Source: Sphingopyxis sp. (lineage in GTDB: Bacteria; Pseudomonadota; Alphaproteobacteria; Sphingomonadales; Sphingomonadaceae). From it: 64,000 nt of DNA. Positions 1-5,260 of this stretch are shown one piece after another. Where the stretch lies: contig JAEULK010000011.1 in assembly GCA_016793775.1 (NCBI GenBank), positions 2,686 through 66,685 of the forward strand, in the 5' to 3' direction. A program made the position numbers and the translations under genes. The notes under the pieces were generated by a model that saw only the letters and a program-made list of their open reading frames with translations, was not told where the DNA came from and searched no databases. The first letter of the stretch is position 1. Every line of letters starts with the position of its first letter.

Positions 1-798
1 ATGCGGCAGCGTTTCGGCCTGTCTGGGATATACAACGCGACCTATCGACCGTTCTCGGTCGAACACGCGCCTCTTGGCTTCCTCAAGCGCGCGCGCGGGG
101 GCCTCGGTCCAGATGTGGGGTGCCTTCGCGTCGCCAATGGAGAAAAGCCAAAGGAAGGGAATGCAGGTCACTTCCATCGCGGGAAGCTTGCCAACGTTAG
201 TGACCTCGGCCCTCACATGAGCGCTGATAAAATCGCCATGGGTTTCACTATGCCTCAGTTCGTATCGATCAACATTTACGTTGTTTATCTTCACCCATGG
301 GCGCTGAGCCATGCGCGCAATATCGTTGGACTGAATAACGGCAAGCGCGTTTTTCTCAGCGATTCCCAGCGCATCCCCAGCCCCCTTGGCGGCCTCCTGA
401 GCGATTTCTACCGTTCTTTCAGTCGCCACGGCAGCGCGCTTCGCATACCAGGCGGCGGCAATGGCAGCGCCCATGGTGAAAGCGCCGAGGACGAGGCCGA
501 CGCCACCAAGCACGACTTGCCACCAAGACCAATGGGAACTGTCATAGGCAGCGTCAGCCGCTTTCCACTGGGCGCAAAGATCGGACTTGCGGTCATCGCG
601 GCCACGCTCGCAACCCTCATCTGGGCGCGGGGAAATTGGCTGTTCTGGGGCAGCAGGATCGGTGGGCGCGGCCTTGCTGGTTACGGCCTTGGCAGCTTGG
701 GGATTTTCGCTCTGAGCGCCGCCCTGTTTGCTTGGGCTAGCCCCTACTAAGGCTAGTCCCGCAACACCAATGAGGATGCACCTATAGCCTCTAAGCAT
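1..798 (-). CDS. Membrane-anchored hypothetical protein, 3'-truncated by the window edge (absent from the ORF track)
   Basis: Hand translation from ATG at 798 is open to base 1: MLRGYRCILIGVAGLALVGASP (signal-like)...DLCAQWKAADAA...WSWWQVVLGGVGLVLGAFTMGAAIAAAWYA (TM)...QRPWV...VTNVGKLPAMEV. The track's 1..750 + ORF is its antisense shadow. Confidence 0.75.
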   Translation of the reverse strand, partial: MLRGYRCILIGVAGLALVGASPSKQGGAQSENPQAAKAVTSKAAPTDPAAPEQPISPRPDEGCERGRDDRKSDLCAQWKAADAAYDSSHWSWWQVVLGGVGLVLGAFTMGAAIAAAWYAKRAAVATERTVEIAQEAAKGAGDALGIAEKNALAVIQSNDIARMAQRPWVKINNVNVDRYELRHSETHGDFISAHVRAEVTNVGKLPAMEVTCIPFLWLFSIGDAKAPHIWTEAPARALEEAKRRVFDRERSIGRVVYPRQAETLPH

Positions 799-992
799 TG
801 CAGCATGAACGCCGCTGAGAAGCCGCCCCGGCTGATCTTGTTGTTAAGGTTCCGCTCGTTCTCTGTGACGCCAACCGACGCCAGCTTTTCCGCAAGCTGC
901 GCATAGGTAACCCCCCGCCTTTTCAGCTCGCCTTTTAACAAGTTTTTGGCGCGAGTCTCATACTCAACGGTGGCAGGATCGGCCTTCGCCAT
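753..992 (-). CDS. DUF6471-like small HTH transcriptional regulator
   Basis: 79 aa, LLKGELKRRGVTYAQLAEKL...NLNNKISRGGFSAAF. XRE-like HTH, divergent from the transposase. Confidence 0.8.
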   Translation of the reverse strand: MAKADPATVEYETRAKNLLKGELKRRGVTYAQLAEKLASVGVTENERNLNNKISRGGFSAAFMLQCLEAIGASSLVLRD

Positions 993-1005
993 ATCAGCAT
1001 CCTTT

Positions 1006-1025
1006 TATCATCAAAAATGATGATA
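1006..1025. promoter_or_regulatory. Putative operator in the repressor/transposase divergent promoter
   Basis: Perfect inverted repeat TATCATCA-AAAA-TGATGATA, 13 bp from the HTH start; TTGACT at 1033-1038. Confidence 0.6.
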
Positions 1026-1085
1026 TAGACCCTTGACTTTGGTTATGTCTACCCTCATATCCGGTGCACAACATCACTGGATACG

Positions 1086-2060
1086 ATGACAATGACCACC
1101 AAAGGCCAACATTTCCTCCTCTCTGCCAAGGCTCGCACTCTGAGCCTCAAGGCTGTTTTCACCATGGGCGAAGAGGGCGCCTACAAGACGTTCTGCCAGA
1201 TGCGCTGGCCTGAGACGGACGGCGAGGCTGTGTGCCCGCGCTGCGGCTGTGTCGAAACCTACGACATTGCCACCCGCCGCAAGTTCAAGTGCGTTGCCTG
1301 TCACCACCAGTTCTCGGTCACCAGCGGCACGATCTTCGCCAGCCGCAAGCTGGGCTTCGTCGATCTTCTCGCCGCAATCGTCATCTTCGTGAACGGCGCC
1401 AAGGGCATTGCTGCCCTGCAACTGAGCCGCGATCTAGATTGCCAGTACAAGACCGCCTTCGTGCTTACCCACAAGCTGCGCGAAGCAATGGCGCGTGAGC
1501 AGATGGGTCGCCAGCTCGACGGCATTGTCGAAATCGACGGCGCCTATTTCGGCGGCTACGTGAAGCCGGAAAACCACAAGGACGACCGCAAGGACCGCCG
1601 TCTGGTCGCCAACCGTTCGGGCAAGCGCCAGTGCGTCGTCGTGATGCGCGAGCGCGGCGGTAAGTCGCTTCCCTTCGTCGTCGCCAACGAAGGCGACGCC
1701 GTTCCTTACGTCCGCGATCATGTCGCCAACCTTGCCGTTCTCCACGCCGACGAAGGCACCGGCTGGGATGCCCTCCACGCCGGTTGGATGACTGAGCGCG
1801 TCAATCACTCGGTCCAGTTCTTCGACAAGGGTGCATGCACCAATCAGGCCGAAAGCTATTTCAGCCGCCTTCGCCGGATGGAAGTCGGCACCCACCACCA
1901 TATCGCCGGTCCGTACATCGGCGCCTATGCCCGCGAAGCTTCATGGCGCGAAGATAACCGCCGCGTATCGAACGGCGATCAGGCTGCGATGGTAACGGCC
2001 GCGGCGATGGCCTCGCGCGTCAGCCGGGACTGGAAGGGCTACTGGCAGCGAACCAACTAA
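1086..2060 (+). CDS. IS1595-family DDE transposase with N-terminal Zn ribbon
   Basis: CPRCG...FKCVAC Zn ribbon, SVTSGTIF, EIDGAYFGG, ADE, NQAESYFSRLRR, YAREASWR; reading frame intact. Confidence 0.95.
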   Translation: MTMTTKGQHFLLSAKARTLSLKAVFTMGEEGAYKTFCQMRWPETDGEAVCPRCGCVETYDIATRRKFKCVACHHQFSVTSGTIFASRKLGFVDLLAAIVIFVNGAKGIAALQLSRDLDCQYKTAFVLTHKLREAMAREQMGRQLDGIVEIDGAYFGGYVKPENHKDDRKDRRLVANRSGKRQCVVVMRERGGKSLPFVVANEGDAVPYVRDHVANLAVLHADEGTGWDALHAGWMTERVNHSVQFFDKGACTNQAESYFSRLRRMEVGTHHHIAGPYIGAYAREASWREDNRRVSNGDQAAMVTAAAMASRVSRDWKGYWQRTN

Positions 2061-2455
2061 GAACAAGCGCCGAACACCATGGGAATCCGGGACACATAAA
2101 GCAGACCTTATATGCGCCTGTGCATAACGTGGTGTGCAAAATATGCTCTAAAATGCCCTCAGAGGGCACAGGAAGCGCGTTAACCAAGCGGAGTACTCCT
2201 CTTGGCATTTTTGCGATTGTCGCATCCACAGGGCTTTAAAACCGAAAATTTGGCACTCTCTTGCGACAAGTGCTTGCCTCTAAACCTGAACGGCCCTAAA
2301 CAGCAAAAGGCCCCGGACGGTGGAAACGTCCGAGGCCTCGAGAGCCCCGCGCTGGTGGCGGGGGATTTGCTATAGCGAGGGGGTTTTATACCCCGGGGAT
2401 AGCAAGGTCAACTGCCACCACGCGCATCAGAAGCGTTTTAATGGTGGAGTTCGAC

Positions 2456-2728
2456 ATGGCTACATACAACGTCACGATCTTGTGCGGCGCGTGCAAGTGC
2501 CCAGCGCAAACCGTCGCTAATCCGAAACCTCATGACAAGGTGACCTGTCCCAGGTGCAACCGAAGCGACCGTTTCGATAACGTCCATCGGACGGTGGGCG
2601 AGCATGTCCAATATGAGACTGCCCGCGCCCTCAATGAAAGCATGGCCCGCGCCACTCGCGGCAGCCGCTTCGTTAAGTTCAAGCCAAAGCACCTCCCCCA
2701 GCGGTCGTTCCGCTGGATTGCCGGCTAG
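2456..2728 (+). CDS. Small Zn-ribbon protein (90 aa)
   Basis: CGAC...CPRC pairs; GGTGGAG SD at 2443-2449 supports the ATG at 2456. Confidence 0.65.
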   Translation: MATYNVTILCGACKCPAQTVANPKPHDKVTCPRCNRSDRFDNVHRTVGEHVQYETARALNESMARATRGSRFVKFKPKHLPQRSFRWIAG

Positions 2729-2783
2729 AGCGATATTGAGTTTCTGAGTTTTCATTCGCCCAATCGGAAAGGGGGTGATTTCA

Positions 2784-2918
2784 TTGGCAAACAAGACCCA
2801 CGAACGTGGACGGGACGCTGGTAGCGGCCAGTTCATTCCCGTCCACGTCGCAGAACGTCGTCCTAAGACGACGGTGGTTGAGACCTATAAGGTCGGCAAG
2901 AAGGGACCGAAGAATTAA
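2784..2918 (+). CDS. 44-aa basic hypothetical protein (below the ORF-track cutoff)
   Basis: SD AAAGGGGGTGAT then TTG: MANKTHERGRDAGSGQFIPVHVAERRPKTTVVETYKVGKKGPKN, stop TAA, followed by a hairpin. Confidence 0.7.
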   Translation: MANKTHERGRDAGSGQFIPVHVAERRPKTTVVETYKVGKKGPKN

Positions 2919-2932
2919 TCGGTCCTAATATG

Positions 2933-2962
2933 GGTCGCCGGGGCTGCACGGTCCCGGCGACC
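2933..2962. terminator. Hairpin between convergent cargo units
   Basis: GGTCGCCGGG-N10-CCCGGCGACC, a 10-bp perfect stem; no clear U-tract. Confidence 0.55.
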
Positions 2963-2964
2963 AA

Positions 2965-3129
2965 TCAGGGACGAATGTTTGCGAGGCAATCCGCTGGCGG
3001 TTTTGATGCGGCCTTTTTGCGGTCCACGGACATCGACACGCCTTCGGCCTGACGATACTCGTATCGAGGCATCTTCAGATCAAAGACGACCTTAGGCCGT
3101 GCGTTCGCCCCGCTGCTCTTTTTAGACAT
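2965..3129 (-). CDS. 54-aa basic hypothetical protein coupled to the Ntn hydrolase
   Basis: GGAGG SD then ATG overlapping the last codons of the upstream gene; MSKKSSGANARPKVVFDLKMPRYEY. Confidence 0.5.
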   Translation of the reverse strand: MSKKSSGANARPKVVFDLKMPRYEYRQAEGVSMSVDRKKAASKPPADCLANIRP

Positions 3130-3970
3130 AATCTGCCTCCAAGGGGTTAAGCTTTCGATCAAAGTGATGCTTCCGTTTTATCCACTTAAAACCTTCGTGT
3201 TTCGTTACGACGCAAATGTCGGTTTCACCGCCGACGGTGTCAGCGCCGGGTAGGAAACGCACGTATGCCTTCGTTGTTTCAACCAAGAAATTTGCGAGCG
3301 CAATCGCGTCCTGTACAGGCATCGCGGGCGATATCAACGGGGCTCTGGTCCGACTTTCTATGTGGGTCAGCACCGCGTCTAAGTTTTCTGGCAACAATCC
3401 AATGTCTAAGAGCGCGTTCGGCAAAAATTGGCTGTAGCCGTTTACGATGCGGTTGATCGCTTCGGGTTGGCCGTCATAGAGGATATCAAATTCGTCCTTC
3501 CCCGCGAGGCATTCCGGCTCTGAGCACTCGCCATTCACGATCTGAATGCGCCATATTTCGCCGTGCATTTCCTTCGCGCAATTGCCCGCGATCCAGAACT
3601 GAAATTCGCTTTGCGGCTTGTCTTCCAGCTTCTGAAAATGCTCCTCAAAGAAGAACGTCCGCGCACGGTTGGCCACCTGTTCGATGGTGTAGTTTTTCGG
3701 GTCGATATGCCATTCGTCGTCTTCCGCGGTGAATCTCGCCCGAAGATCCTTGGCCAGCGTGCTAATGGAGATCGGACCGATGTTCCCCATGCCACACGTC
3801 ATCGCGGCAATTGGAAGACCCTTGCGCAGGTTGAACACCTTATTGCCGTGGGAATAGACATTGGCGATCAAGGGGCGGCCATCATCCAGCGAGGATTCAA
3901 TGAGTGATGACGCGCTATCGGCAGCAAACACGATACAGTCGTGTACTTTGACCGCGACGCAAACCGTCAT
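3122..3970 (-). CDS. Proteasome beta/HslV-like Ntn-hydrolase fold protein
   Basis: N-terminus M-TVCVAVKVHDCIVFAADS matches the Thr1...AAD pattern; GNKVF Lys; C-terminal DTVGGETDICVV; SD GAGGGGG. Confidence 0.7.
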   Translation of the reverse strand: MTVCVAVKVHDCIVFAADSASSLIESSLDDGRPLIANVYSHGNKVFNLRKGLPIAAMTCGMGNIGPISISTLAKDLRARFTAEDDEWHIDPKNYTIEQVANRARTFFFEEHFQKLEDKPQSEFQFWIAGNCAKEMHGEIWRIQIVNGECSEPECLAGKDEFDILYDGQPEAINRIVNGYSQFLPNALLDIGLLPENLDAVLTHIESRTRAPLISPAMPVQDAIALANFLVETTKAYVRFLPGADTVGGETDICVVTKHEGFKWIKRKHHFDRKLNPLEADYV

Positions 3971-4032
3971 AAATCCCCCTCACCGCCGATGAATCATAGT
4001 GTGCCGTTCATGTCAATCACTCGCGACGGCAA

Positions 4033-4467
4033 CTAACGTACCAGCTCCCATTCAAGATATTGACCGCCGCGAGTTTCAACGTTGCGAACCAATGATTGAT
4101 CGCGACGATCACGAAGGCACGTTGAGACGCGCTTGGTCATCAACCCGAGCAACTTGGGGGTCGCGGTCAATCCGCGCTGTACGATCATCTGAGCGGCAAT
4201 CTCACGCGACGTAAGCGGCTTGTTCGCAACGCGCATGATCGACAGGACGACGCGGGACATTTCGCCGCGCTTCGACCAGTCGTCGGGCGGGCGGACGAAC
4301 TTGGGGGCAATGGCGGGAATATCCAGATCGGGCGCGACCAGCTTTATCGCGGCGTCGAGCGTTTCCAGATCGCGCGCCATCTGAGCCAGCGCGTCCTGTG
4401 TCCGCGTCATCTCGCCCGCCAGTTCCGCGCGGCGCTTCACCAGCCCTGTCACCATGTAATCTGTCAT
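4033..4467 (-). CDS. Coiled-coil plus winged-helix hypothetical protein at the transposon end
   Basis: N-terminal heptads (LVKRRAELAGEM...LETLDAAIKL); C-terminal wHTH-like RVVLSIMR...PLTSREIA...LEWEL; starts 67 bp inside the terminus. Confidence 0.8.
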   Translation of the reverse strand: MTDYMVTGLVKRRAELAGEMTRTQDALAQMARDLETLDAAIKLVAPDLDIPAIAPKFVRPPDDWSKRGEMSRVVLSIMRVANKPLTSREIAAQMIVQRGLTATPKLLGLMTKRVSTCLRDRRDQSLVRNVETRGGQYLEWELVR

Positions 4468-4469
4468 GG

Positions 4470-4534
4470 TGCTACATTACGAAAAGTTCACTAGACAGGG
4501 CAGATGGTCGTTGGTGCGTTTGCTACATAATGCC
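4470..4534 (-). repeat. Transposon terminal sequence with subterminal repeat
   Basis: TGCTACATAA (4521-4530) and TGCTACATTA (4470-4479) are direct repeats 51 bp apart; terminus GGCATTATGTAGC on the - strand. Confidence 0.75.
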
Positions 4535-5260
4535 GAGCGCCTCGCCGGGATCGAGGTCGGGCAAGATGCCGGGCAGGCACGCCGCCATCAGCGACTTGCC
4601 CGCGCCGGGCGGGCCGACCATCAGCAGATTATGCCCGCCCGCCGCGGCGATTTCGAGCGCGCGCTTGGCGACCTCCTGCCCCTTGACCTGCGCGAGGTCG
4701 GCCATGCGGCGCGGCTCCTCGACCTCACCGGGGCGCGGCGGGGCGAGCAGTGCGCGGCCCTTGAAATGGTTGAGCAGCGAGAGGAGGTCGGGCGCCGCGA
4801 GCACCTCGACATTGCCCGCCCACGCCGCCTCAGGCCCCTGCGCGACGGGGCAGATCAGCCCGCGATCCTGGCTGCCCGCGTGAAGCGCCGCGAGCAGCAC
4901 CCCGGGCGAGGCGGCGACGCGGCCGTCGAGGCCGAGCTCGCCGACGACCACATAGGCGCCGATCGTTTCGGCATCGATGACGCCCATCGCGCCGAGCAGC
5001 GCCAGCGCGATGGGCAGGTCGTAGTGCGATCCCTCCTTGGGCAGGTCGGCGGGCGACAGGTTGACGGTGATGACCTTGGGCGGGAGCGACAGGCCGATCG
5101 CGGCGATCGCGGCGCGGACGCGCTCGCGGCTTTCGCCGACCGCCTTGTCGGGCAGGCCGACGACGACGAAGCGCGGCACGCCGGGGGTGATCTGGCACTG
5201 CACCTCGACCCCGCGCGCTTCGAGGCCGAGATAGGCGACGGTGGACACGATCGCGACCAT
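4535..5260 (-). pseudogene. comM: 5' half (242 codons) of comM/yifB Mg-chelatase-like AAA+ ATPase, interrupted
   Basis: GLPDKAVGESRERVRAA, VNLSPADLPKEGSHYDLPIA, VKGQEVAKRALEIAAAGGHNLLMVGPPGAGKS. After LDPGEAL it reads into the element (GIM-stop). Full ComM is about twice this length. Confidence 0.95.

Follow-up and report, generated by a model that had tools for sequence, protein, structure and literature searches.

An IS1595-family transposon in comM of Sphingopyxis sp. as a member of an apparently undescribed site-specific branch with a candidate protein target selector

Introduction

A stretch of 64,000 bp from the draft genome of Sphingopyxis sp. (assembly GCA_016793775.1; 3.9 Mb, 106 contigs), hereafter the window (positions 2686-66685 of contig C53 in genome G000; G000:C53:2686-66685), begins inside an IS1595-family transposon which interrupts comM. 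The question raised by this locus is whether an insertion sequence (IS) of this family was directed to comM and, if so, which component of the element selects the site. A preliminary description, made from the sequence of the window alone, had proposed that this IS1595 lineage may target comM. The proposal stands as far as the site is concerned, since 29 of 81 related elements occupy two exact positions in comM, but specificity was found to follow a small gene at the right end of the element, designated p144, and not the transposase lineage. We consider it probable that the element is an ISNha5-like IS1595 "transporter IS" (tIS) with a swappable protein target selector, p144, which guides insertion. 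It is well formed and belongs to a site-specific branch, apparently undescribed, of a known IS family.

The transposon and its boundaries in comM

The features of the window on which the analysis rests are the following (coordinates are window positions).

1..4535, no strand: transposon, window portion, delimited by inverted repeats and duplication; the rest lies before window position 1 (L147:2396-2685)
753..992, minus strand: DUF6471 small helix-turn-helix (HTH) protein, divergent from the transposase gene (Pfam PF20075, E 6e-32)
1086..2060, plus strand: IS1595-family DDE transposase, 324 amino acids (aa), intact (Pfam PF12762, PF12760; NCBIfam NF033547)
4033..4467, minus strand: p144, candidate target selector, 144 aa, start codon 68 bp inside the right end
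4512..4535, no strand: right terminal inverted repeat, 24/24 against C53:2396-2419, its terminus kept in about 70 relatives
4536..4543, no strand: right target-site duplication AGCGCCTC, the same comM position being duplicated in 19 elements
4536..5260, minus strand: 5' part of comM, 242 codons long, which includes the ChlI domain and the Walker A motif (Pfam ChlI, Mg_chelatase)

An exact search placed the whole transposon at G000:C53:2396-7220 (4,825 bp), with its initial 289 bp to the left of the window, and it is present as a single copy in the host genome. The left inverted repeat (C53:2396-2419) matches the right one, in inverse orientation, at 24 of 24 positions; read inward, the right repeat (plus strand, window 4512-4535) starts CGGCATTATGTAGC. 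Identical copies of the 8-bp duplication AGCGCCTC adjoin the two repeats (left copy C53:2388-2395, right copy window 4536-4543), which on the comM sense strand reads GAGGCGCT and encodes E-A-L. To the left of the element comM resumes in frame (...EALEVSMIASVAG...), so that the matching end, the duplication and the comM continuation predicted for the DNA beyond the window were all found there (C53:2388-2419, 289 bp before the window). Both an 8-bp duplication and terminal inverted repeats are features of the IS1595 family. The junction quoted in the preliminary description is real, although its terminal G/C belongs to the repeat, which makes the duplication AGCGCCTC and not GAGCGCCT; the outermost C/G was assigned to the repeat because in L043 one end is mutated at this base while the 8-bp duplication is still exact.

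The comM 5' fragment begins MVAIVSTV..., contains the Walker A motif GPPGAGKS and is interrupted 17-19 codons further, past which the reading frame enters foreign sequence; the reported break of comM after 242 codons, beyond Walker A, is thus seen on the minus strand at window 4536-5260. A search with tblastn against full-length Sphingopyxis comM located a middle piece (C53:1973-2395) and a 3' piece (C66:2354-2743). The gene is uninterrupted across both positions in two genomes of the same genus (G401 and G438, product approximately 92% identical to the Sphingopyxis comM reference), and the insertion is therefore not ancestral to the genus. Both dprA and comEC are intact in this genome, whose comM is cut twice by unrelated elements.

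Six open reading frames (ORFs) other than the transposase are present in the 4,825 bp. The transposase gene lies mid-element with other genes on both sides, as had been described, and is the sole mobility gene; it scored E 1.5e-35 against PF12762 (DDE_Tnp_IS1595), E 1e-13 against PF12760 (Zn_ribbon_IS1595) and 143 bits against NF033547 (cut-off 75). The zinc-ribbon residues C50/C53/C69/C72 and the acidic residues D151, D222 and E256 were invariant among 77 homologues. Pfam and NCBIfam scans of element ORFs of at least 65 aa gave no tnsA, tnsB, tnsC, TniQ, TnsD or TnsF, and a Pfam scan gave no serine or tyrosine recombinase gene between the inverted repeats. The earlier statement that integrase, serine recombinase and Tns genes are lacking accordingly holds for the element, the large serine recombinase gene situated 600 bp further left (C53:78-1736) being outside its left repeat and part of a separate element.

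Relatives and their recurrent exact insertion sites

Transposases at least 62% identical to that of the Sphingopyxis element were found by protein search in 29 of 400 genomes of the family, one close copy apiece. DNA of 17.5 kb around each of these 29 genes was analysed together with 79 further named loci from a species-representative collection, and elements were accepted where the transposase gene was bracketed by inverted repeats and by an 8-bp duplication that matched exactly. This gave 81 distinct elements of 1.5-6.8 kb in Alphaproteobacteria, in Sphingopyxis, Sphingobium, Novosphingobium, Croceicoccus, Citromicrobium, Parerythrobacter and Allosphingosinicella and, beyond the order, in Dongiaceae, Rhizobiaceae, Hyphomicrobiales, Rhodobacterales and Maricaulis. 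Their termini are nearly invariant. DUF6471 is present in 77 of the 81 and is missing from the three minimal elements, which, at 1.6 kb, consist of a transposase gene and a p144-like ORF and nothing else. In the minimal elements (L130:9875-11471, L131 and L135) these two genes are convergent, and one genome carries three identical copies.

For assignment to site classes the two flanks of each element were joined and junctions were cross-mapped by tblastx with a tolerance of 4 bp; target genes were assigned by tblastx and blastx of the empty sites, as longest-ORF calls took wrong frames in this G+C-rich DNA. The flanks of the homologues, once tabulated as the preliminary description had suggested, were not scattered at random: 58 of the 81 elements fall in eight recurrent exact-site classes, as follows.

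comM-1: 19 of 19 elements at codon 245, between Walker A and Walker B (mapped on one comM reference), duplication GAR-GCN-CT, residues E-A-L; the site of the Sphingopyxis element
comM-2: 10 of 10 elements at codon 309, two codons past the DE of Walker B (...LFLDELPE|FQ...)
GT2-B: 9 elements in the gene of an NfrB-type glycosyltransferase, lying 4 bp upstream of the stretch that codes for GPTTKADCLN
GT2-A: 7 elements in the same type of gene, 24 or 27 bp downstream of the GPTTKADCLN-coding DNA
REP-like palindrome: 6 elements at the palindrome centre, in Sphingopyxis
mnmE: 3 elements on the stop codon (L132:6625-6632, L108, L095), between mnmE and mnmG
Second glycosyltransferase-like gene: 2 elements
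rve_3: two 1.6-kb minimal elements at the same conserved motif in the integrase-core gene of another IS

The 29 comM insertions were in both orientations and in many genera, and the 16 insertions in the NfrB-type gene (NCBIfam NF011307, NF008411; Pfam Glyco_trans_2_3) were at two positions. In the mnmE class the duplication preserves ...FCIGK-stop and the recognised gene is left intact. Orientation relative to the target gene was 22:23 over the four large classes and 11:8 at comM-1. No consensus is shared by the duplicated 8 bp across classes. In GT2-B the duplicated bases contain no conserved base at all, while a conserved 30-bp motif begins 4 bp away in 9 of 9 elements, from which it follows that the recognised sequence is beside the cut and not in it.

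Could such classes arise from random insertion, with recurrence produced by the survival of harmless or useful insertions and by spread through homologous recombination, and with p144 as a lineage marker linked to a flank? The targets comM, nfrB-like genes and REP copies are dispensable, and transposase identity follows host genus, as expected of concerted evolution; AbaR islands, moreover, do spread by transformation with flanking homology (PMC11441513). This account nevertheless has to meet the use of one and the same nucleotide position by 19 and by 10 elements, whichever way they are oriented; some near-identical elements even face opposite ways at the same 8 bp (e.g. L074 and L075). Flanks in the REP class are unrelated, with 13 of 15 flank pairs sharing 0 bp, so that these insertions are at different loci and are independent events. 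Occupied comM genes are as low as 60%, and occupied nfrB-like genes as low as 44%, identical in protein to the references, a divergence too large for homologous exchange and for spread through flanking homology. Furthermore, the half of comM next to p144 is the 5' one in certain genomes but the 3' one in others, so that p144 is unlinked to a single flank. Random insertion is, on this evidence, unlikely. Judged from these alignments, the recurrent insertions are independent, sequence-directed transposition events, and comM is one of many homing sites, given the nfrB-like, mnmE stop, REP and rival-IS classes.

Inheritance of one old comM insertion was also considered and was rejected on the basis of the two orientations, the differing cargo and the empty sites within the same genus; it is further contradicted by transposase identity, which does not follow the site.

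The p144 segment tracks the insertion site

Of the 81 elements, 80 carry a p144-like ORF at the end opposite DUF6471; it is mostly 130-170 codons long and in most cases starts approximately 68 bp inside the end. Where transposases were at least 88% identical, the p144 proteins of elements at the same site were at least 50% identical and those of elements at different sites at most 37% identical, with one exception. Among the 58 recurrent-site elements, the area under the curve for sharing a site was 0.95 for p144 identity, 0.61 for transposase identity and 0.57 for DUF6471 identity, pairwise statistics which are inflated by the non-independence of related sequences. On maximum-likelihood trees the site label changed 8 times for p144, 30 times for the transposase and 31 times for DUF6471; the minimum possible is 7, and 200 shuffles of the labels on the p144 tree gave a mean of 34 changes (lowest 28), with 32 for DUF6471 when shuffled.

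Natural swaps are in line with these trees. The Sphingopyxis element and L068, which is inserted in the palindrome, are 94% identical in DNA over the left 2.3 kb, a block that comprises the left end, the membrane ORF, DUF6471 and the transposase, and rightward of it they share nothing, p144 included. Conversely, DNA comparison with five other comM-1 elements showed that the Sphingopyxis element shares with them only the transposase gene and the segment of p144 and the right end. The 3-bp shift of insertion point within GT2-A separates L035 and L051, which are mutual nearest relatives in p144, from the other five elements.

A database search with p144 returned 278 homologues, all labelled hypothetical except for one UniRef label, "HTH HARE-type". 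Four homologues that had not been used in the analysis (69-84% identical) were examined as a hold-out, and all four are in IS1595 elements which split comM, flanked by a 245-aa comM N-terminal product and a C-terminal remainder, with p144 beside the N-terminal half in two and beside the C-terminal half in two; the ten places at which one of them (P0049) occurs have common neighbours and were counted as one event. In these sequence comparisons, insertion specificity maps to the p144 segment and not to the transposase lineage.

That the transposase itself recognises the target, p144 being merely a regulator such as a transposition repressor at the element end, is very unlikely. Intrinsic target preferences are common among insertion sequences, and the p144 start codon, which a -10-like TAATGT precedes, is 68 bp from the end, a position where end-binding regulators are typically encoded; yet transposases 94-98% identical to that of the Sphingopyxis element occupy three different sites, those of other Sphingopyxis elements being found at the REP-like palindrome or the mnmE stop with a different p144. 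The distribution of site labels over the transposase tree is also nearly random (30 changes, against 34 after shuffling), and the absence of a consensus in the duplicated 8 bp, both across classes and within GT2-B, is likewise contrary to a preference of the transposase.

A nucleic-acid determinant in the right-end segment of approximately 500 bp, e.g. a guide-like RNA from the p144 region, is very improbable too, even though RNA-guided targeting is known in other IS families and the natural swaps resolve only to a segment made up of the p144 ORF and 68 bp: the longest exact matches of elements to their own targets (mean 9.6 nt, maximum 13) were just as long as those found with the targets of other classes, a comparison that split recognition of 4-7 nt would escape, the 43 non-coding bases between the repeat and the p144 ORF do not follow the site (in the comM-1 element L036 they resemble the REP class), and the p144 ORF is kept open, with its fold conserved, across 6,435 clusters.

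Structure and family of p144

The p144 protein gave no match to any Pfam, NCBIfam or PADLOC family and one weak hit in PHROGs (phrog_10175, E 8e-4). A profile search of 1.84 billion cluster representatives (clusters at 50% identity) returned 6,435 at E of 0.001 or below, of which 2,782 were at 1e-10. AlphaFold2, run on an alignment of 45 sequences, gave a model with a predicted local distance difference test (pLDDT) score of 88, in which a helix of residues 2-44 is followed by a linker, three helices and a beta hairpin. Foldseek weakly matched the model to winged-helix DNA-binding domains (ZitR/MarR, Fur/PerR, PadR). When a single variable recognition surface was sought, all five segments of the protein differed between classes alike (ratios 1.8-2.2). 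From its modelled fold, p144 is predicted to be a core component and not cargo, because it is a predicted winged helix and because the 1.6-kb elements carry only the transposase and the p144-like gene.

A -10-like TAATGT or TATGTA was observed 6-12 nt before the p144 start, in the window (4468-4480) and in approximately 40 relatives, with no Shine-Dalgarno sequence. This arrangement suggests that the p144 transcript may be leaderless or very short-leadered, beginning beside the inverted repeat.

Proposed mechanism

In the mechanism that we propose, the DDE transposase would cut at the 24-bp inverted repeats and join the element to its target through an 8-bp stagger. p144, presumably as a dimer formed via its long helix, would bind a conserved motif, coding or repeat, adjacent to the point of insertion and recruit the complex of transposase and ends, integration then taking place at a fixed distance from the bound stretch; either orientation would be possible because both ends are identical. 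The p144 of the Sphingopyxis element would represent a lineage homing to comM codon 245, while other lineages would home to the Walker B codons of comM, the nfrB-like positions, the REP-like palindrome, the mnmE stop and the integrase core of a rival IS.

Several observations weigh against guidance by p144, in addition to the inflation of the pairwise statistics noted above. The Foldseek scores are weak (E 7e-4 at best, TM 0.34-0.42), p144 varies with the site over its whole length, and both its binding to DNA and its contact with the transposase are what we infer. Being the gene nearest one flank, p144 could owe part of its linkage with the site to position rather than function. Random orientation is unusual for one-sided protein-guided targeting; the orientation of Tn7 is fixed. 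Finally, some elements whose p144 is 66-86% identical to that of a known class are inserted elsewhere, namely L044 (a TraI-like helicase gene), L114 (hsdR), and L141 and L082 (unannotated sites); these four may be off-target events or diverged or shifted specificities.

A more general proposition, which in our judgement could equally well hold or fail, is that this is a minimal two-protein homing system in which a DDE transposase is combined with an exchangeable winged-helix selector of 140-160 aa, with neither an ATPase adaptor nor a guide RNA. Thousands of selector lineages would each have their own motif and be carried by single-copy elements, and the inactivation of DNA-uptake genes, phage-receptor genes and rival transposons may serve the element.

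Comparison with known systems

The transporter IS of the IS1595 family are defined by passenger genes between the inverted repeats, and the passengers of ISNha5 have been read as transcription regulators (PMC11891212); passenger-carrying ISNha5-type tIS were described in 2009 by Siguier, Gagnevin and Chandler, as cited in PMC11891212 and PMC12561309. An 8-bp direct repeat has been reported for the family, of which ISApl4, an ordinary member, was present in 39 copies at AT-rich sites (PMC12561309). The elements analysed here resemble the ISNha5 tIS in having one DDE transposase with an N-terminal zinc ribbon, short inverted repeats, an 8-bp duplication and internal extra genes, and the passenger regulators of ISNha5 fit DUF6471 and p144. 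They differ from the description of ISNha5 in that one supposed passenger regulator appears to be a targeting component, and from ISApl4 in that each genome has a single close copy and the sites are exact and conserved. The ends of the ISNha5 subgroup read CGGnnTT, with which the sequence CGGCATT is compatible.

Faure et al. [quoted passage not shown] As with Tn6022/AbaR and TnsF, an exchangeable dedicated protein selector, here a candidate one, sends a DDE transposon into comM, and the comM-2 class lands two codons beyond the Walker B motif targeted by TnsF, by different means. In contrast to Tn6022/AbaR, the Sphingopyxis element lacks TnsA, TnsB, TnsC, TniQ and TnsF; the candidate selector is a winged helix of 140-160 aa and not a dead tyrosine recombinase; the duplication is of 8 bp with random orientation rather than of 5 bp with fixed orientation; two genes in 1.6 kb make up the minimal system; and the comM position of the Sphingopyxis element, codon 245, is a different one. 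Tsy is an unrelated family which likewise converges on comM via a DNA-binding selector, but it has tyrosine recombinases and neither inverted repeats nor a duplication, both of which are present in this DDE element. Serine- and tyrosine-recombinase integrative elements are unlike it in the same way, as no recombinase lies between its repeats and the target is duplicated.

Tn7, guided by TnsD, inserts at attTn7 by glmS in one orientation downstream of the gene and needs the TnsC adaptor. The present elements share with it the recognition of a highly conserved coding sequence and insertion at a fixed offset, and the mnmE-stop class leaves the recognised gene intact as Tn7 does at glmS; unlike Tn7, most classes insert within the recognised gene and inactivate it. 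The probable targeting mechanism differs from the known protein-guided transposition systems as a variant of them.

Tuffet et al. reported that disruption of comM by AbaR islands shields these islands from removal by transformation (PMC11441513). We infer, by analogy only, that the knockout of comM may be of advantage to the present element, the benefit being protection from curing by incoming DNA. In searches of the literature outside subscription journals, no paper on site-specific IS1595 elements or on the target specificity of IS1595 was found.

To our knowledge, Tn7-like elements, in which three to five proteins are required, are almost the sole known case of DDE transposition guided to a specific site by a protein; the same outcome seems to be attained here by an IS transposase together with a single small winged-helix protein. 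If p144 does act as the selector, IS1595 elements have a core targeting component in a gene long taken for a passenger regulator, the pattern of one close copy per genome is explained, and studies of transposase recruitment and compact site-specific integration tools could draw on a large natural library of selectors whose specificities can be read. The branch would also be the third unrelated element family to converge on comM, and the position of comM-2 at the Walker B codons targeted by TnsF strengthens the idea that mobile elements gain by disabling the recombination of incoming DNA.

Other genes of the element

The remaining ORFs of the element are cargo.

1..798, minus strand: ORF of approximately 300 aa with an N-terminal hydrophobic stretch, extending past the left edge of the window; no family match
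2441..2728, plus strand: ORF of 95 aa, CxxC zinc-binding protein; weak ECs_2282_CxxC match, phrog_23920
2965..3970, minus strand: pair formed by a 282-aa ORF (3122-3970) and a 65-aa ORF (2965-3162); no family match for the whole

The ORF at 1..798 recurs, at 94% DNA identity, in L068, whose target is another one; the pair at 2965..3970 is absent from the other comM elements compared. The match of the 95-aa ORF to the NCBIfam model ECs_2282_CxxC (E 1.5e-4) is under the cut-off, and the C-terminal 60 residues of the 282-aa ORF match phrog_5990 (E 2.4e-14), a PHROG of no assigned function. Nothing usable was obtained for the cargo ORFs of 266, 95, 282 and 65 aa from PADLOC, PHROGs, NCBIfam, Pfam or a PDB sequence search, and a role as defence genes was not assigned to them.

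Other insertions in comM and further observations

The second cut in the comM of this genome, after ...PLLDRI, is made by a separate element (L147:78-1973 in G000:C53 and L148:1-2354 in G000:C66). It has a large serine recombinase of 553 aa (Resolvase, Recombinase and Zn_ribbon_recom domains; C53:78-1736) at one end and a gene for an HTH plus Dam-like methyltransferase at the opposite end, its interior being on other contigs, and its junctions show imperfect inverted half-sites.

A third kind of insert, of 4.4-13 kb and without IS1595 ends, was found in comM in five other Sphingopyxis genomes (L152:1846-6269, L153, L154, L155 and L156), where it sits at ...GGHNLLM|VGPPG, immediately upstream of Walker A; a Pfam search of the insert in L152 recognised no recombinase. 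In L153, codon 245 of the same comM is additionally occupied by an IS1595 element.

At the Walker B position of comM, a distant relative (L139:742-7580) adjoins on one side the inverted repeat of another element, which suggests tandem or nested insertions at one site. In L094, a contig labelled as part of a Synechococcus metagenome-assembled genome (MAG), an nfrB-like gene was observed to contain a sphingomonad-type element, the transposase of which is 96% identical to the one in an element from an Erythrobacter MAG; the contig probably entered the public MAG as a contaminant during binning.

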